In this document: in pieces, positions 19,071-54,441 of the stretch
Layout of the letters: each line of letters starts with the position of its first letter
Position numbering within the stretch: position 1 is the first letter of the stretch
Source of the DNA: an uncultured Acholeplasmataceae bacterium
GTDB taxonomy: Bacteria > Bacillota_I > Bacilli_A > Acholeplasmatales > Acholeplasmataceae
Length of the DNA stretch: 64,000 bases
NCBI GenBank assembly: GCA_963539755.1
Contig: CAUTMP010000003.1
Coordinates: forward strand, 9,058 to 73,057
Direction: 5' to 3'
Position numbers and translations under genes: made by a program
Notes under the pieces: generated by a model
The model's database searches: none
What the model was told of the DNA's origin: nothing
Seen by the model: only the letters and a program-made list of their open reading frames with translations

Positions 19071-19084
19071 TGTAAACGCTTACA
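19071..19084 (+). promoter_or_regulatory. cre-type (CcpA/LacI-family) operator TGTAAACGCTTACA
   Basis: Matches the consensus TGWAANCGNTNWCA at 14/14 positions and overlaps the -35. An identical copy lies at 54292-54305 on the minus strand. Confidence 0.6.
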
Positions 19085-19108
19085 TTTTAAAAATATAAGT
19101 GGTAAAAT
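19080..19108 (+). promoter_or_regulatory. promoter of the nuclease lipoprotein gene
   Basis: -35 TTACAT, 17-nt spacer, TGg-TAAAAT extended -10. Lies 31 nt upstream of the ATG. Confidence 0.6.
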
Positions 19109-19138: not shown

Positions 19139-21163
19139 ATGAAAAAAGCATTTGTTTTACTGTTAGTTGCGATGTTGTCATTCTTTTTCTACTGTTGTAC
19201 AAAAGTTAATTTAAATACGATAATGAACGAAGTTAGTTTAAAGGACTACTCTAATAAAAGAGTCAATGCAGACATTCAAACTAATTTAGAAGAACTTAAA
19301 AACAAATATAAAGTAGACATTAAGGTTGAGTTTAACGACAACGAAATTGCAAGTTACGAAAACTCAACTATTAAGATAAACAAAAAATCAGAAGACAGCA
19401 CTTTAATTGTAAAAATTACGGTTAGCTATAAAAATCAACAATTTACTAAGTTGTTTAAGATTTTTATTGCCAAAATAGACAATACTTTACCTGAACCTTC
19501 GCCAACCCCCGATCCAAACCCACAACCAAATCCAAACCCACAACCAAATCCAAACCCACCAACTCCGTCCCCAGAGCCTGAACCAAATCCAACTCCTAAA
19601 AACCAGCATCCAGTAATTAAAGCAGTCAAAGCAAATGATAATGAAAAAGTTACCGCAATTGGCTGGATTGTTGCCTATTACTTAAACTTTGGCGTAGCTC
19701 TTCAAGACAGTACAGGCGGAATTACTTTAAAATCAGGTAAAAACGACTCAGTTAAGTTTAGTCAAATCCAAGCACTGGTTGGCAAGTACGTTCAAGTTTC
19801 CGGAACTCGCACTGCATACAATGGTTTAGTTCAAATTTCAAAAATTACTGAAATTAAAGAAATTTCAAATCCAGAAGAACCTTTTCCAACAGCCCTAGAC
19901 ATAACTAAACTAGACATTGCTAAACATCAGGCTAGACTACAAAGTACGCTAGTTAGCATCACTAACGCAAAGGTTAAAAGTTTTGAAAAAGATAAAAAAT
20001 TTGGAAACATCAACATTGTTTTTGAGTTTTTCGGTAAAGAACTTACCTTTAGATATGACAGCCGCGTAAATAAAGCCAAATGGGCTTCAATACTTGAAAA
20101 CTTAAAACCAGGTAAGTCTTATGACCTGACTAATTTAGTGTTTTCGTTTTACAACCAACCACAATGTTCAGTTTCAGAAACATTTGAGTTTAAACCGCAC
20201 GTTAACGAAAGTGGGAAAATAAATGTTTTCTTTGACTTAAACGGCGGAACTATTGCAGGCGGTGTTCAACCACAAATTATTGAAGTTGGACAAACTGCAA
20301 AAAACCCCGGCAGCCCAACTAAGCAAAACTATGAATTTTTAGGTTGGTCTAAAACTGGCAAAACCGACGATATTTTTAATTTCAATGCTAAGTTAACCGA
20401 AGACACAACACTTAAGGCTGTATATAAATACAACGGACCTGCTGAAGATTTAGACGAAGTAAATGGCTATTATTCTTCTGTAAAAGGTCTGGAAGGCGAT
20501 GCGCTTCGCGCTAGACTTAAACAAATCATAGACAAACCAGCAACTTCTTACGACACAGCACTAGAAGCTCTTAGAAAAGCAGACGAGTCTATCACAAACC
20601 CTGGTTATTTTTATTTAGCGTATACTGGAGACAGTCCAAGATATCAATATCGGCTAAACTCAAAGGACGGCTGGAACCGTGAACACGTTGTGCCAAACTC
20701 TAAATTAAAAGAACACGGTATTGCAAAAGGTGAACTTCACAACTTAAGAGCCTGTGATATTCAAACCAACTCAAGCAGGTCTAACTATCCATTTGTTGAA
20801 GGAAGCGGCGCAAATAAAGCGATTAACGGCAGCACCTACTATCCAGGTGATGAACATGTTGGCGATATCGCAAGAATTTGTCTGTATATGGCTTTGCGTT
20901 ATGACTTCCCACTTAAAAAGGTAGGTAAATTAGAGACTTTCTTAAAATGGCATAGGCAAGATCCGGTTAACGAATTTGAAAAAAGAAGAAACAATATTTT
21001 GGCTCAATATCAAAAAAACCGAAACCCTTTTATTGACAACCCCCAGTTTGTTGAAAAAATTTTCGGGAACATCAAAACTACTTCTTTAAATGAAGTTATG
21101 TATAGTCTTTACCTGCAATTAGTTAAACCGGTTTGTATGTTTGGACAAAAACTAGATTTATAA
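19139..21163 (+). CDS. surface nuclease: signal/lipobox, Pro-rich linker, OB-like domain, Flg_new-like repeat, C-terminal Endonuclease I-type domain
   Basis: 674 aa. N-terminal signal ends FFFYCC. Linker PEPSPTPDPNPQPNPNPQPNPNPP. Flg_new-type module VFFDLNGGT...YEFLGWSKTG...TLKAVY. The C-terminus has WNREHVVPNS, LHNLRACD..TNS.RSN, YYPGDEHVGDIARI and NRNPFIDNP, as in Endonuclease_1 family nucleases. Confidence 0.8.
   Translation: MKKAFVLLLVAMLSFFFYCCTKVNLNTIMNEVSLKDYSNKRVNADIQTNLEELKNKYKVDIKVEFNDNEIASYENSTIKINKKSEDSTLIVKITVSYKNQQFTKLFKIFIAKIDNTLPEPSPTPDPNPQPNPNPQPNPNPPTPSPEPEPNPTPKNQHPVIKAVKANDNEKVTAIGWIVAYYLNFGVALQDSTGGITLKSGKNDSVKFSQIQALVGKYVQVSGTRTAYNGLVQISKITEIKEISNPEEPFPTALDITKLDIAKHQARLQSTLVSITNAKVKSFEKDKKFGNINIVFEFFGKELTFRYDSRVNKAKWASILENLKPGKSYDLTNLVFSFYNQPQCSVSETFEFKPHVNESGKINVFFDLNGGTIAGGVQPQIIEVGQTAKNPGSPTKQNYEFLGWSKTGKTDDIFNFNAKLTEDTTLKAVYKYNGPAEDLDEVNGYYSSVKGLEGDALRARLKQIIDKPATSYDTALEALRKADESITNPGYFYLAYTGDSPRYQYRLNSKDGWNREHVVPNSKLKEHGIAKGELHNLRACDIQTNSSRSNYPFVEGSGANKAINGSTYYPGDEHVGDIARICLYMALRYDFPLKKVGKLETFLKWHRQDPVNEFEKRRNNILAQYQKNRNPFIDNPQFVEKIFGNIKTTSLNEVMYSLYLQLVKPVCMFGQKLDL
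19514..19558 (+). repeat. perfect 18-bp tandem repeat (CCAAACCCACAACCAAAT x2.5) encoding PNPQPN
   Basis: Read directly from the sequence. In frame, within the Pro-rich linker of the nuclease gene. Confidence 0.95.
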
Positions 21164-49327: not shown

Positions 49328-49361
49328 AAAAAGCCTTGTTCCTAAAGAACAAGGCTTTTTA
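49326..49361. terminator. bidirectional terminator between trmL and the giant lipoprotein gene
   Basis: A-run, AAAGCCTTGTTC-CTAAA-GAACAAGGCTTT, T-run. Confidence 0.85.
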
Positions 49362-49381: not shown

Positions 49382-52300
49382 TTATTCAACGACAACAGTA
49401 AATGAAACTAAATATAGACTTCCTTTTCCATCTTTTTTAATTTCAATTTTATTGGTTTTTGGATTTAAAATAAATGTAAAATCAACATCACCGTCAGACT
49501 TATTAACTGCATTTGCTGAATTTTGTCCATTAACAGAAATATAAACGTTTTTACCGGCCATACATCCGTATTTTATGTTAAAAGATTTAACTTTATGAGT
49601 ACCAAAGTCAATTTCAAGAACACCAGCTTTATTATTTGTGCCTAGTTTGTTTCTGTCACCAGATTTAGTGAAATTTGTTTTTTTAGTGATGGTTGCGGTA
49701 ACACCATCAACATTATTTGATTTTAAGTTAGCACCATTAAACTCAAATGTTGCTGTTTTTTCTGGATTTACTTCACCTTCTTTTAAGTATTTATAAGTAA
49801 CTTCATATTCAAAGACTTCATCTTTCAAAATACCTTCTGAAACTGTGGCGGTAAACTTAACCTTGGTGTTGTCAAGACTTTGGTCGGTTTTAACTTTGCC
49901 GTCTCCGTCTAAAATGTCGGCAGGAGTATATGCCCAAGTTAATTTTTGGCCGTGTAGTTCTTGAGGTAATTTAACTTCATCTCTTGAACGAAGTTCGCTT
50001 ATTAAGTCAAAGAATGCTTTCAACTCAGATTTTACTCTGTCGCGTGTTTGGTTTTTCTCAAACTCAGCGTCAAGTGTAAGTCCGGCTTGGCTTAAGATAA
50101 ACATACCTCGTTTATCTCTAAAGTATCTGTAGACCGCGTCTTTGATGTGAACAGCCTTGCCATCTGCCAGTAAAGCCTTAGCTGCATCGTTTAATACAAC
50201 TAGTTCAATCTTTTTTCTACCGTCAATTTGAAGGTAATATTTTTCAGCTTTATTGTCCTTTTTAATTACTTGGCTGTTAATTGAAACCAAAGTACCAGTT
50301 TCTGTATTCCAAAGTGCGTTTAAGTCAGTAACTTGAGTTGCTGCAACTTGATCTATTGTTTCTGCGCCTGTGTATTTGCGAATATCTGACTTTTCATAGT
50401 ATACATAGTCTTTATCTTCAAAACCGTGAATTTCAATGTGTTGATAAGTAGTTTGTTTAAAGATGTCTTTCATAAAATCAAGAATAACGATATCGCCAAC
50501 TTTAGCGCCAAAGTCTTTCATTACAAATACAACTAAGTATTTACCAGTTTTATCAGTTACTGCTAGGTTAACAAACTCACCTTTTTTACCTTCATCACCT
50601 GTCTTCTCTTCAACGTCTGAAATTTGTGTGACTTTTGCAAGGAATGAACCTGCTTTGGTGTGTAAGTCTGCGAAGCCTAAATAACTTTCTTTTTGGCTAA
50701 TTGTTAAGTTGATGTCGTAGTCGATTTGGTTAGCACCGATTTTATTGTTTTCAATCTTGGTGTAAGGATCTGCGGTTCCACGTTTAGTTAAACTCCAGTG
50801 TTCAAATGAATAGCCTTCGCGTATATCTGAAGCAGGTTTTAACTCAAGACCATCAAAGTAGGTAAAGTTAACATAGTCTTCACCGTTTTCTTCTTTGACA
50901 TCACTTAAAGCAGATTTGGCTGAATTGTATGAAAATCTAGACATAGAAGCGCGGTCTAAGTAAGCCTTGTATTTAGTAATTTTAATGTTTGCAGTAATTA
51001 CTTTGTCGCCGACTGAACCTTTTTCAATTTTAGCGATATCCCAACCTTTAAAGGTATAGCCCTTGCCGTTTGCAAGTGCAGTGAAGGTGATTTCTTCAGT
51101 TTCTACAGTGTAGGTAGTTGGGTTGCTATTAGCAACTTGGCCAATTTTTGAGTCAATAACATACTCAATTTTAAAAGTTATTAACTCAAATTTGGCGTGT
51201 AGAGTAATTGCGGCTTTAGTATCGGTTAAGTCTTTTGCCTCTACTTTAGTAGTAAAGGTATCTTCTTTGTACCAACCAACAAAACGATAGCCTGGCATGT
51301 CTTTTGGAGTAAGCAGTTCATCGGTAATTTTGCTGTTGTGAATAAACTGTTTTTTCTCTTCTTGCTGACCATGTGCTTTGGTGTTGTATTTTAAAGTAAG
51401 TTCGTGTTTAAGCGGAGTTGCCTGTGGCTCTGCGTCTTTTTGTGCTTGAGAAAGCGCAGTGTTTACAGGAACTTTGTCCCATTTAGGTGAATCGCCTTCA
51501 AGTACTGATGATTTTAAGTAGAATGCAGGAACTTCAGGTAAAGTCATCATAGCAGCATTCTTAATGTTCGCTGCTTTAATCATGAATCTTGAGTAAATTA
51601 CGCCAGATCCGTCGCCTTCTGTGTATGAAAGTCTCTTAACATAATCTGCTTTGACAAATCCTTCTTCAAAAGTAATAGTCATTACTTTACTTGCGTAAGT
51701 TATCTTAATCTTTCTTAAATCAAAAGCGTCTGGAATATCTAGACCATCTAATACTGATTTACGGTCAGCAATAGCGGCTTCTAGTTCAGCGTCTTCTGTG
51801 AAAGTTAAGGTTACAGTATTTTGATTTACAACTTCAAGTTTTGCCGTAAAGTTAGATTCTTCAAATTCTGCTCTTAAAGTTAAGTCTTTAAACTTACCAT
51901 CGGTAGATTTGATTTCTTCATTAGTTTCTGTATCAATCCATCTTTTGAAGTGATGTTTTTCTTTAAATGCAGGTTTGAACTCTACTTTGTTTTCAACTGT
52001 ATAAGTTGAATTATTGTCAGGTGAGTTTTGCGCGTCTTCTAGTCCTTGATAAGTAATTGAGTAAGTGTGGACTGTTTTAACTTCAGAAATAGTGATGTCT
52101 TTTTCTGCGTTTTCAGGCATTTCAGACCATTTAAAGTCATAACCTGGTGTAGTACTTAGCGCAGGGTATTGGATTTTTTCACCATAAGCGTACTGTTTAG
52201 TTTCTTCAGGTCTGCCGTCTGTAAAGGTAAACTTAACAGTTGGTCTAAAGTCTTTTAGTTTAGCGTAAACTGTGATGTCGCCAACTGTGCCTTTTTCAAT

Positions 52301-54223
52301 TTTGGTAATTTGAGTTTGAAAGTCTGCTTCTTTATACCAACCTTCAAAGATTTTGCCAGGAGTATTTGGGAACGCCATTAAATCAAACTCATTGGTAGTG
52401 ATGTCAAACTCTTTAGTTTGAATTGTTGTGTCGCCTGACTTGTAGGTTAAGGTGTATTTAATTAAAGTTTCTTGTATTTCAAAGATTTTGCCATCATGAC
52501 TTTTTACAAACTTAGCGTTTTCGCCAAGTGCTTTTCCTGTGTCTTTAAATACCCACTGTTGTTCGTATCCAGGTTTTGCAGGAATAGTAGGAGGAGTAAC
52601 TGGTTGACCGGCGTGTCCTTCTACTTTGTGTTCAGTTGCACCAATAAAGAAACGATATGTAATTTTTTTGTGTTCTGTGTAGACAGGGGAAATTACTGTA
52701 GTTTCAGTAAAGTCATGTGGGAAGGTTTGTGACCACTTGGCTGTGTGGAATTCTTTTGCAGGAATTTTTGGAATTCTTGAATCTTTTGTGGTAAAGTGCG
52801 AGTTCCATTGTTTTAATTCTTTGTCTGTGCTGTTGAAGTTCTTTCTAACTTGCAGTTTAGCCAAGTCTGTTCCGTCTTCGTTTTTAAAAGTAACGTCTAG
52901 CACGGTGTATTCAACAATGTTTGGTACAAGTTCTGTGTCTTCAGTTAACTTGTTGATGTCAGCAGGTTCGTTAGTTGCTTTATTTAACCAACCTCTAAAG
53001 TCGTACTTAATGTTTTTCTCTTTAAATAAATCTTCATATTGAGATAATTCAAACTTACCAGGGAATGCTTCTAGTTTTCTTAGTTCTGTAGTGTTGTCTT
53101 TATCAAAGAAAGTTAAATTGATTTTTTTAGTTTGTACAGTGATTTCAGGGGTAAATACAGTGGCTTGGGTAAGAGAGTTGAATTGATCTTCTGGCAACCA
53201 TTTTAAAGTTTCGTTTTCTTTTAAGTCAAGCAATTTATTAAAGTCAACGTCTTTTAGTTGAACTGGTTTGCCGTCTTTTGAAGTACCACGATAAATTTCT
53301 TGGCCGTCTCTACCTTTAAAAACCACACGGTGTGTACCTTTGGTAGCAGTTTTTGCAACTAATTTAAGGTCGTGTGTGATATTTTTTAAATCATCTTCAT
53401 TAACTGGTTCTAACTTAGTACCTTTTTTGATTTGCCAGTATAAAAACTCACCACGTTCAGCGCTGTCGTATTTATCTTCTTTTGGCAATTGGCTAAGTTC
53501 AACGTTTGAACCACGCGCAACTTCAAGGGCAGGAATGTCTTCTTGAACTTGGCTTTTTGAGTTAGCAAAAGTAATTCTAACTTTTCTGCCTTGTACGTTT
53601 ACTTTAAACTCACGAGTTTTGCCTTCAATTTCAGCAGTTAAAGTAACCTCAGTAGTAGATTCTGGTGCTGTGTATTTAGCCTTGCCGTCTTCGATTTTCA
53701 AAACATCTGGGTGAGATGAAGTCCAGTTAACTGACTTACCTTCAATTTCTTTAGGTAATTCAAGGTCTGCTTCAACTGCTTTTGGTAGTTTTAGTTTTTT
53801 AAGTAGTTTTTCTGGAGTATCTGGTTCTGGTTGTGGTTGTGTACCTTTTTTGGCAACAGTGAAAGTAAATTCTTTTGAAACTGAACCTGCAGTTGCTTTT
53901 AAAGTAACTTCCACGTCTTCGTCTTGTTGTACTACTTCAATAGTGTAGCCGTCTTTAATTTTGGCTGCATTTTGACCTTTTGTAATTTCGTAAGTAACAT
54001 CAAAATTACCAATTTTACGGTCTAGCGCAAAGTTTTTATCAATTGTTCCACTTGGAACTGTCAATTGAGTTAAATCCGGGTCTGTTGGTTTTGGATCTGG
54101 ATTTGGTTTAGGTGTAGTTTTGCACGAAAACATGAGTACAAAAACACCTAGTGTTAAAGCAGTGATTGCAAATATTTTCAAGATTGTTGAAAACAATTTA
54201 TTTGCTTTAGTGCTTGTTTTCAT
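49382..54223 (-). CDS. giant surface lipoprotein (1613 aa) with Ig-like and Flg_new-like repeats
   Basis: Start moved to ATG 54223, 6 nt after AAAGGGG. Signal plus lipobox LMFSC followed by PKPNPDPKPTDP. LxLP...W.SS.P-type Ig-like modules lie at both ends. Many F.GWY modules are present (FEGWYKEADF, YRFVGWYKEDTF, YTFKGWD). The ORF-track TTG at 54256 has no RBS. Confidence 0.85.
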   Translation of the reverse strand: MKTSTKANKLFSTILKIFAITALTLGVFVLMFSCKTTPKPNPDPKPTDPDLTQLTVPSGTIDKNFALDRKIGNFDVTYEITKGQNAAKIKDGYTIEVVQQDEDVEVTLKATAGSVSKEFTFTVAKKGTQPQPEPDTPEKLLKKLKLPKAVEADLELPKEIEGKSVNWTSSHPDVLKIEDGKAKYTAPESTTEVTLTAEIEGKTREFKVNVQGRKVRITFANSKSQVQEDIPALEVARGSNVELSQLPKEDKYDSAERGEFLYWQIKKGTKLEPVNEDDLKNITHDLKLVAKTATKGTHRVVFKGRDGQEIYRGTSKDGKPVQLKDVDFNKLLDLKENETLKWLPEDQFNSLTQATVFTPEITVQTKKINLTFFDKDNTTELRKLEAFPGKFELSQYEDLFKEKNIKYDFRGWLNKATNEPADINKLTEDTELVPNIVEYTVLDVTFKNEDGTDLAKLQVRKNFNSTDKELKQWNSHFTTKDSRIPKIPAKEFHTAKWSQTFPHDFTETTVISPVYTEHKKITYRFFIGATEHKVEGHAGQPVTPPTIPAKPGYEQQWVFKDTGKALGENAKFVKSHDGKIFEIQETLIKYTLTYKSGDTTIQTKEFDITTNEFDLMAFPNTPGKIFEGWYKEADFQTQITKIEKGTVGDITVYAKLKDFRPTVKFTFTDGRPEETKQYAYGEKIQYPALSTTPGYDFKWSEMPENAEKDITISEVKTVHTYSITYQGLEDAQNSPDNNSTYTVENKVEFKPAFKEKHHFKRWIDTETNEEIKSTDGKFKDLTLRAEFEESNFTAKLEVVNQNTVTLTFTEDAELEAAIADRKSVLDGLDIPDAFDLRKIKITYASKVMTITFEEGFVKADYVKRLSYTEGDGSGVIYSRFMIKAANIKNAAMMTLPEVPAFYLKSSVLEGDSPKWDKVPVNTALSQAQKDAEPQATPLKHELTLKYNTKAHGQQEEKKQFIHNSKITDELLTPKDMPGYRFVGWYKEDTFTTKVEAKDLTDTKAAITLHAKFELITFKIEYVIDSKIGQVANSNPTTYTVETEEITFTALANGKGYTFKGWDIAKIEKGSVGDKVITANIKITKYKAYLDRASMSRFSYNSAKSALSDVKEENGEDYVNFTYFDGLELKPASDIREGYSFEHWSLTKRGTADPYTKIENNKIGANQIDYDINLTISQKESYLGFADLHTKAGSFLAKVTQISDVEEKTGDEGKKGEFVNLAVTDKTGKYLVVFVMKDFGAKVGDIVILDFMKDIFKQTTYQHIEIHGFEDKDYVYYEKSDIRKYTGAETIDQVAATQVTDLNALWNTETGTLVSINSQVIKKDNKAEKYYLQIDGRKKIELVVLNDAAKALLADGKAVHIKDAVYRYFRDKRGMFILSQAGLTLDAEFEKNQTRDRVKSELKAFFDLISELRSRDEVKLPQELHGQKLTWAYTPADILDGDGKVKTDQSLDNTKVKFTATVSEGILKDEVFEYEVTYKYLKEGEVNPEKTATFEFNGANLKSNNVDGVTATITKKTNFTKSGDRNKLGTNNKAGVLEIDFGTHKVKSFNIKYGCMAGKNVYISVNGQNSANAVNKSDGDVDFTFILNPKTNKIEIKKDGKGSLYLVSFTVVVE

Positions 54224-54267
54224 ATTTACCCCTTTTCTGGCCGATGTAGGCCTCAATTCATATACTT

Positions 54268-54305
54268 ATTATATTCTATATATAACGATTTTGTAAGCGT
54301 TTACA
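54268..54305 (-). promoter_or_regulatory. promoter of the giant lipoprotein gene with an overlapping cre-type operator
   Basis: The minus strand reads TGTAAACGCTTACA (54305-54292). Its last 5 nt plus A form the -35 TTACAA, followed by a 17-nt spacer and TATAAT (54273-54268). The architecture matches 19071-19108. Confidence 0.6.
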
Positions 54306-54387
54306 TAAAATTTTTTAAATATTTTTAAAAAACTTAAAAAATCGGTTTTTTCTGCAAAAATTCACACTAAAACCACAAAAAATAAAT

Positions 54388-54423
54388 AAACTGCAGTGTT
54401 TTTTCATGTAAACACAGCAGTTT
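54388..54423 (-). terminator. terminator of the FNT-rnhA operon
   Basis: AAACTGC(A)GTGTTT ... AAACAC(A)GCAGTTT hairpin with one central mismatch. The minus strand continues ATTTATTTTTT. Confidence 0.65.
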
Positions 54424-54441
54424 ATAACTTTTAATTTGAAA

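Follow-up and report, generated by a model that had tools for sequence, protein, structure and literature searches.

The 14-bp near-palindrome TGTAAACGCTTACA, which occurs twice in the 64,000-nt stretch of DNA analysed here (the window), was confirmed by sequence comparison as a real, conserved site of the cre operator type. It is probably the operator of a single LacI-family protein, P0001, a descendant of CcpA that has no HPr partner, whose docking surface has been rewritten and whose cre-reading head has been kept. We infer that P0001 binds to these sites, represses transcription from them and regulates its own gene.

CcpA is a textbook LacI-family protein that depends on a phosphoprotein partner, and the genus described here displays its fate once genome reduction removes that partner: the protein was kept under purifying selection and its docking surface was rewritten. 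As far as our searches of the literature show, a CcpA orthologue lacking both HPr and the docking surface and having a regulon of lipoprotein and nuclease genes has not been described. The putative regulon, compact and fully enumerated, consists of five operators with a single regulator in an uncultured, wall-less member of the Acholeplasmataceae. Recombinant protein and synthetic DNA would suffice to test it, and it offers a natural experiment on the rewiring of CcpA allostery. In addition, the analysis fixes the promoters and start codons of two genes in the window, which encode lipoproteins of 674 and 1613 aa.

Operator copies, promoters and target genes

Exact copies of TGTAAACGCTTACA were found at 19071-19084 on the plus strand (site 1) and at 54292-54305 on the minus strand (site 2), the positions given in the initial annotation, and a scan of the 64,000-nt window returned no third exact copy, likewise as annotated. 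The motif agrees with the cre consensus TGWAANCGNTNWCA at all constrained positions, which upholds its initial assignment to this class, and forms the palindrome TGTAAAC-G-CTTACA with 6/7 symmetric half-sites and a central CG. Both copies overlap the -35 element of a good promoter. At site 1, a promoter consensus scan returned CTTACA-18-TAAAAT with a TG extension (19079-19108, plus strand). Here the right half of the operator supplies the -35 element (19079-19085), read either as CTTACA with an 18-nt spacer or as TTACAT with a 17-nt spacer, and TGgTAAAAT (19100-19108) forms the extended -10 element, which in an alignment of nuclease promoters is kept even in the most divergent species (locus L054). 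At site 2 the same scan returned CTTACA-18-TATAAT on the minus strand (54297-54268), with the -35 element CTTACA inside the operator (54292-54297), the -10 element TATAAT at 54268-54273 and TTACAA-17 as an alternative reading. The CTTACA-18 readings are equivalent to the TTACAT and TTACAA hexamers with 17-nt spacers described initially, and the scan agreed with the -35 overlap and the -10 elements assigned at that time. A TTTTA preceding both copies had also been reported; it is present near both sites but shifted by one base at site 1, where the five bases 5' of the motif read TTTAA, compared to TTTTA at site 2.

Site 1 belongs to the gene of a 674-aa lipoprotein (19139-21163, plus strand; lipobox) with a C-terminal Endonuclease I domain (PF04231, 4.9e-30) and a Listeria-Bacteroides repeat. 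In comparison with the PDB this protein matched Vvn/EndA-type endonuclease I (3e-9), and it is referred to as the nuclease in the following. Site 2 belongs to the monocistronic gene of a 1613-aa lipoprotein (49382-54223, minus strand; lipobox), in which Pfam detected aBig_2, Listeria-Bacteroides and InlB B-repeats. This gene starts with ATG at 54223 behind a GGGG ribosome-binding site and not with TTG at 54256, which was rejected since only a few bases separate it from the predicted start of transcription, and it is followed by an intrinsic terminator (49328-49360, minus strand) with a 15-bp stem and a T run. A terminator-like hairpin (aaactgcagtgttttttcatgtaaacacagcagttt region, 54340-54440, minus strand) was observed behind the RNase H gene, a short distance upstream of site 2, which argues that the 1613-aa gene has its own insulated promoter.

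Within the window alone, four matches with at most two mismatches were counted against 1.07 expected, and 3 of 100 shuffles also reached four. Since this window-level test is weak, chance occurrence was estimated for the whole genome (728,384 bp in 21 contigs, 95.8% complete, ~34% G+C, standard code) by means of 60 first-order Markov genomes. Three exact copies of the 14-mer were found against 0.017 expected, and five copies with at most one mismatch, the exact ones included, against 0.70 expected. A palindromic position weight matrix (PWM) gave five sites of at least 20.5 bits in the whole genome, and the next best match, with 15.5 bits, lies inside a gene. All five operator copies, three of them exact and two with one mismatch, sit at promoters. 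The cre-type motif that the nuclease and 1613-aa promoters had been described to share is indeed common to both, and by the PWM scan and the Markov genomes it is enriched at promoters genome-wide. Lower-scoring PWM matches at C9:278, C2:75275, C6:24340, C2:64070 and C20:1269/1948 were not accepted, as they fall into coding sequence or are not followed by a promoter and a gene.

In contig coordinates the two window sites are located at C3:28128 and C3:63349. The third exact copy (C9:28524), which reads TGTAAGCGTTTACA in the direction of transcription, contains the -35 element TTTACA of the promoter TTTACA-17-TATAAT and belongs to lip665 (C9:28605-30587; L002:8606-10588), a gene outside the window encoding a 660-665-aa lipoprotein. 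The copies with one mismatch are TGAAAACGCTTACA at C9:27637, belonging to lip258 (C9:27729-28478; L002:7730-8479), which encodes a 249-258-aa lipoprotein and also lies outside the window, and TGTAAGCGTATACA at C5:3292, belonging to an ABC transporter operon. All constrained positions of TGWAANCGNTNWCA are matched by the three exact copies and by the lip258 variant, and the variant of the ABC operon agrees with the looser form WTGNAANCGNWNNCW only.

For the lip258 product a tandem OB fold was predicted (pLDDT 78), whose best structural matches were the DNA-binding tandem OB proteins Teb1 AB, RPA70 DBD-A/B, HIN-200 and POT1 (E ~1e-6 to 1e-4), with TM-scores of only ~0.3 for the whole model and ~0.6 for single-OB matches; this model suggests that the protein may be a surface-anchored DNA-binding protein. 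The lip665 model (pLDDT 82) combines an Ig domain with a long stalk built from repeating helical hairpins; its C-terminal part is a beta-sandwich that resembles the carbohydrate-binding modules CBM6, CBM32 and CBM35, with target-normalised TM-scores of ~0.4-0.5. Word-based homologue searches found the lip258 and lip665 products in this genus only, and sequence comparison of both proteins and of the 1613-aa lipoprotein with the PDB and NCBIfam returned nothing useful. The ABC operon encodes a Ugp/MalK-type ATPase, two MalF/G-type permeases, an SBP_bac_8 lipoprotein, a lipoprotein with a lamin-tail domain (LTD) and two further proteins. It is the sole CUT1-type (sugar-type) importer of the genome, the other binding-protein-dependent systems being PotABCD, which lies in the window, and one pair on contig C1. 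The ATPase (C5:3403-5628; L003; 741 aa) combines a Ugp/MalK-type domain with a coiled coil of ~200 aa and a C-terminal weak match to PBP_like_2, and in three of five relatives the ATPase domain of its orthologue was matched as two separate pieces.

A control of the surface proteome as a whole, as proposed initially, is not what was found. Two giant surface genes lie downstream of the nuclease gene and have no operator of their own. The first of them has its own promoter-like site, and no terminator was found between it and the nuclease gene; read-through from the nuclease gene into the giant genes is possible on the basis of this arrangement. As delineated from the genome, the predicted regulon is thus confined to five defined operators, mostly at surface lipoprotein genes, and does not extend to the surface proteome in general.

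In the three promoters with an exact copy (nuclease, 1613-aa and lip665), the operator covers approximately -44 to -31 and includes the -35 element. A dimer of P0001 would bind to the near-palindrome and, at these three promoters, would block sigma region 4 and exclude RNA polymerase; as the -35 element is supplied by the operator itself, bound P0001 would act as a repressor here. The ABC operator ends 9 nt upstream of TTGACT-17-TATAAT (centre ~-51.5) and the lip258 operator ends 17 nt upstream of TTGAAT-17-TATACT (centre ~-59.5). At these two promoters P0001 might modulate transcription with either sign.

The latter arrangement raises the alternative that P0001 is mainly an activator, by class II-like recruitment at the sites overlapping the -35 element and in an ackA/pta-like manner at the two upstream sites. 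CcpA acts as an activator of ackA and pta when bound to cre sites with a centre at about -56, the distance between operator and -35 element is free of indels at the ABC (17 sequences) and lip258 (14 sequences) promoters, where the operator lies upstream of the -35 element, and the -35 hexamers within the operator are imperfect. Nevertheless, three operators contain a usable -35 element, spaced by 17-18 nt from a -10 element that is good or TG-extended, and these promoters should therefore fire without help. Moreover, a LacI-type dimer centred at ~-37.5 would occlude sigma region 4, and we know of no LacI-family activator centred near this position. A role mainly in activation is accordingly regarded as improbable, and repression at the three overlapping sites is preferred.

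Conservation of the operators across the genus

The same five operators recur in 18/18 sister species, usually as three exact copies and the same two variants, whereas a control with the reversed pattern gave 0-1 matches per genome in these 18 species. In five relatives from the same family but outside the genus, no exact copy and 0-1 matches with one mismatch were detected. With regard to a possible ancestral control of the ABC operon by CcpA, its orthologues in five family relatives were examined, and a match to the cre consensus was found in one, at -121. Species of the genus differ by a synonymous divergence (dS) of 0.15-1.3. When their promoters were aligned, with the downstream coding sequences as anchor, mean pairwise identity was 0.96-1.00 within the operators and 0.60-0.83 in the flanks.

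The ABC operator is invariant in all 14 columns across 17 distinct sequences; the region just upstream is rich in substitutions and indels, and conservation starts exactly at the operator. For lip665, 13/14 columns are invariant in 15 distinct sequences, with both flanks variable and compensatory changes in the terminator that forms part of the upstream flank. The nuclease operator is invariant at 13/14 columns among nine distinct sister-species sequences, with a mean pairwise identity of 0.98 as compared to 0.81 for the rest of the upstream region. Its sole change creates the perfect palindrome TGTAAGCGCTTACA, and the most divergent species retains the 14-mer amid rewritten flanks. The operator of the 1613-aa gene is invariant in six true orthologous sister sequences; the respective set contains one mis-assigned row (L053), which lowers its figures. 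Least secure of the five is the lip258 operator, with 10/14 invariant columns in 14 distinct sequences: it lies in the last codons, at the 3' end, of the upstream coding sequence, and its central CG is lost in one species.

Two natural variants provide ready-made material for tests of binding affinity. These are the nuclease operator of species G017 (locus L097), which is the perfect palindrome TGTAAGCGCTTACA, and the lip665 operator of species G015 (locus L075), which reads TATAAGCGTTTACA and, on the other strand, TGTAAACGCTTATA.

The AT-rich genome and the weak shuffle test of the window could be taken to mean that the copies arose by chance or by a recent duplication of a promoter segment without regulatory meaning. 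Chance is refuted by the number of exact copies in the genome (3 against 0.017 expected) and duplication by the flanks of the copies, which are unrelated, and both are refuted by the conservation of the copies among species with a synonymous divergence that reaches up to saturation. Hence, virtually no weight was given to this explanation, and the sites were treated as operators.

The regulator P0001 and the loss of its HPr partner

P0001 is a protein of 331 aa encoded at C9:30677-31672 and comprises a LacI-type HTH domain (PF00356, 1.9e-19) and a periplasmic-binding-protein-like effector domain (PF13377, 4.3e-23). It is the only match to PF00356 in the 95.8%-complete genome. The initial annotation, which had noticed that the window holds no regulator gene of this family, was correct in this respect, as the sole LacI-family gene is located on contig C9, outside the window. 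An exact operator copy (C9:28524) lies ~2.1 kb upstream of the P0001 gene, in front of lip665, and the P0001 gene directly follows lip665 after a gap of 90 nt.

Half of the motif coincides with the -35 element at three promoters, and it could in principle be bound by another, unrecognised factor or be part of a promoter module of an alternative sigma factor, the link to P0001 being coincidental. However, the conserved block reaches 8 nt upstream of the -35 element, two copies are located well upstream of it, and a palindrome with a central CG is a signature of the LacI family. In addition, the genome has a single LacI-family gene, an exact copy of the operator is present at its own locus, and its recognition helix matches that of CcpA. 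We therefore consider it quite unlikely that a protein other than P0001 reads the motif.

The ancestry of P0001 was deduced from gene order, profile matches and phylogeny. tyrS lies 3 nt downstream of the P0001 gene. tyrS also follows the best homologue of P0001 (31-36% identity) in 12/12 relatives that represent other genera and families of the order, amounting to 13/13 genomes examined with that of P0001 included. The tyrS-linked homologues of the relatives match only TIGR01481, the CcpA equivalog model, with 274-301 bits, below its cut-off of 442 bits; P0001 itself reaches 161 bits on this model. The best PDB matches of P0001 are all CcpA, ahead of LacI and PurR. In a maximum-likelihood tree that included 16 LacI paralogues from the same order and CcpA of B. 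megaterium, the genus clade was placed inside the clade of tyrS-linked CcpA proteins (SH-aLRT 100). Its stem measures 3.0 substitutions per site, compared to 0.2-0.6 for others, and owing to this very long stem the exact sister group of P0001 inside the CcpA clade is unsafe. By position and phylogeny, P0001 is thus assigned as the CcpA orthologue of the Acholeplasmatales.

Within the genus P0001 is 90-98% identical, with a dN/dS of ~0.05 at a dS of 0.15-1.3, demonstrating strong purifying selection. Beyond the genus cluster (66 members) identity falls to 35%, and a word-based homologue search found a regulator of the P0001 type in this genus only. These sequence comparisons describe a history in which a burst of change was followed by strong constraint.

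The gap between lip665 and the P0001 gene harbors a 12-bp hairpin (C9:30608-30635; L002:10609-10636) with a poor T tract. Its stem is invariant in 18 species and its tetraloop freely variable, and the conserved ATACTTTCATATAAAAC takes the place of a T run behind it. A leaky terminator is one possible role of this hairpin, an element of RNA stability or processing in front of the regulator gene another. Neither a convincing promoter of the P0001 gene nor a strong terminator was found in the 90-nt gap. For this reason we only infer negative autoregulation, which would probably proceed via read-through of the weak hairpin from the lip665 promoter. An essential tyrS gene 3 nt behind the P0001 gene would be awkward for a tightly repressed operon; a promoter-like site is present inside the 3' end of the P0001 gene.

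The initial annotation had predicted a CcpA/LacI-type regulator and, with it, control by carbon status. The first part is supported, as the search for ccpA, hprK, ptsH and LacI-family genes led to a single gene of the CcpA lineage, P0001, with an exact operator at its own locus, but ptsH and hprK were not among the genes found, and carbon-status control through HPr is not supported. Searches of 19 genus genomes, 12 of them with a completeness of 90% or more, detected HPr (PF00381) and HprK (PF07475) in none, although both were found in the positive controls and in the majority of the other genera of the order. The docking residues were then assigned by alignment to CcpA of B. megaterium, the numbering of which is used here. 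Seven residues that dock HPr-Ser46-P or Crh-P were checked (Y89, Y295, D296, A299, V300, R303 and K307), and Y295 is the sole one retained. In 18/18 orthologues from the genus the others are replaced (Y89Q/E, D296R/H, A299E, V300Q, R303I/T and K307Q), whereas the relatives show Y89 and, in helix IX, YDIGAV(A/S)MRLLTK with hardly a change. Unlike the docking surface, (I)ATVSRV of the recognition helix has been preserved in the P0001 orthologues, as has the hinge leucine. Arg303 is the contact to P-Ser46-HPr that starts the allosteric switch (PMC6155242). In group A Streptococcus (GAS), CcpA V301A, in which the equivalent of Val300 is exchanged, does not bind HPr~P but still occupies 37 of 76 loci and keeps the majority of its targets repressed (PMC8359418).

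In classical catabolite repression, glycolytic flux would act through HPr kinase, and CcpA in complex with HPr-Ser46-P would bind to cre and shut off the surface genes when sugar is plentiful. The perfect fit of the operator to the cre consensus, the descent of P0001 from CcpA and the presence of HPr and HprK in relatives of the order are all in line with this model. Yet with HPr and HprK detected in none of the 19 genus genomes and six docking residues replaced, Arg303 and Lys307 among them, the classical signal path cannot operate. Judged from these genomes, catabolite repression via HPr-Ser46-P is close to refuted and was assigned only a very small probability.

Three other sampled lineages of the Acholeplasmatales in which HPr and HprK were not detected (G023, G027 and G037; loci L028, L033 and L032) keep a tyrS-linked CcpA. 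In these, Val300 is changed to T, K and A, respectively, together with R303Q in G037, and Val is found in all HPr-containing relatives. Decay of the docking surface may thus follow the loss of the partner repeatedly. Furthermore, neither a LacI-family homologue nor HPr or HprK is present in G019, a member of the same family with a genome of 0.9 Mb on a single contig; apparently this represents the other outcome of genome reduction in the family, in which the regulator was lost too.

In the absence of HPr, occupancy of the operators would be set by a small molecule in the sugar-binding cleft or by the concentration of the regulator alone. Most likely, P0001 acts as a ligand- or concentration-controlled repressor of a small surface-foraging regulon. 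A more specific version, which we consider possible at a clearly lower probability, is that P0001 senses a metabolite and governs foraging for nucleic acids and polymers, in a circuit similar to those of PurR and CytR that would have formed from CcpA after loss of the signalling arm of the PTS. The regulon would then comprise the surface endonuclease, the tandem-OB lipoprotein, the LTD-domain lipoprotein, the stalk protein tipped with a carbohydrate-binding module and the Ugp/MalK-type importer, and candidate ligands would be a nucleoside, a pentose phosphate or a sugar phosphate made from the imports of the regulon. This would place a PurR/CytR-like circuit in a sister lineage of the phytoplasmas. 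Direct sensing of a sugar phosphate, if true, would still make P0001 a carbon-status switch.

Comparison with known systems

Compared to the CcpA/cre system of Bacillus, Lactococcus and Streptococcus, P0001 belongs to the same gene lineage, as indicated by the linkage to tyrS and the best matches in the PDB and NCBIfam, and has the LacI-type fold, the recognition helix and the hinge leucine in common with it. The operators of both systems follow the cre consensus, and sites overlapping the promoter imply repression. In contrast, the genus of P0001 lacks HPr, Crh and HPr kinase and the docking residues are replaced, P0001 itself has diverged very far (161 bits, with the cut-off at 442 bits), and its putative regulon consists of five operators instead of a global catabolic regulon.

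Within the same order, the regulon of the CcpA homologue ACL_RS05870 of A. laidlawii is reported to consist of three operons for carbohydrate transport and metabolism (PMC5138195, Fisunov et al. 2016). In promoters of this species the -35 boxes are pronounced and the -10 boxes carry a TRTG extension (PMC5138195), and therefore the reading of promoters by -35 and -10 elements is appropriate for the family. ACL_RS05870 and P0001 are probably encoded by orthologous genes, and both have small regulons with clear -35 and -10 promoters. However, A. laidlawii keeps HPr kinase whereas the genus of P0001 has lost the partner system, and the predicted targets of P0001 are surface lipoprotein genes at four of five operators.

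With LacI, PurR, RbsR and CytR, P0001 shares the dimeric architecture of an HTH domain and a periplasmic-binding-protein fold, the palindromic operator with a central CG and a local regulon to which an ABC importer and the locus of the regulator itself belong. These proteins act without a protein co-factor, which is most likely also true for P0001. Nonetheless, it belongs to none of their orthologous groups and would have reached this mode of action secondarily from a CcpA ancestor.

The closest experimental parallels are CcpA V301A of GAS (PMC8359418) and the 'locked-on' variant T307Y (PMC6155242), which occupy many cre sites and repress without binding HPr~P. The helix IX residues exchanged in these variants are those that are changed in P0001. 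While V301A and T307Y are engineered single mutants in hosts that keep HPr, the loss in P0001 is natural, complete and fixed in the genus.

Finally, in mycoplasmas operons comprising a surface nuclease lipoprotein and a sugar-type ABC transporter (e.g. MAG_5040) are a conserved arrangement and were proposed to import breakdown products of nucleic acids or to supply the cell with their precursors (PMC3585158). As predicted for the genus of P0001, a surface nuclease is coupled there to a CUT1/Ugp-MalK-type importer with lipoprotein partners. The nuclease in mycoplasmas is of the SNase type, whereas the 674-aa lipoprotein is of the endonuclease-I type, and the coupling that mycoplasmas achieve by operon structure would be achieved here by an operator shared between unlinked genes.
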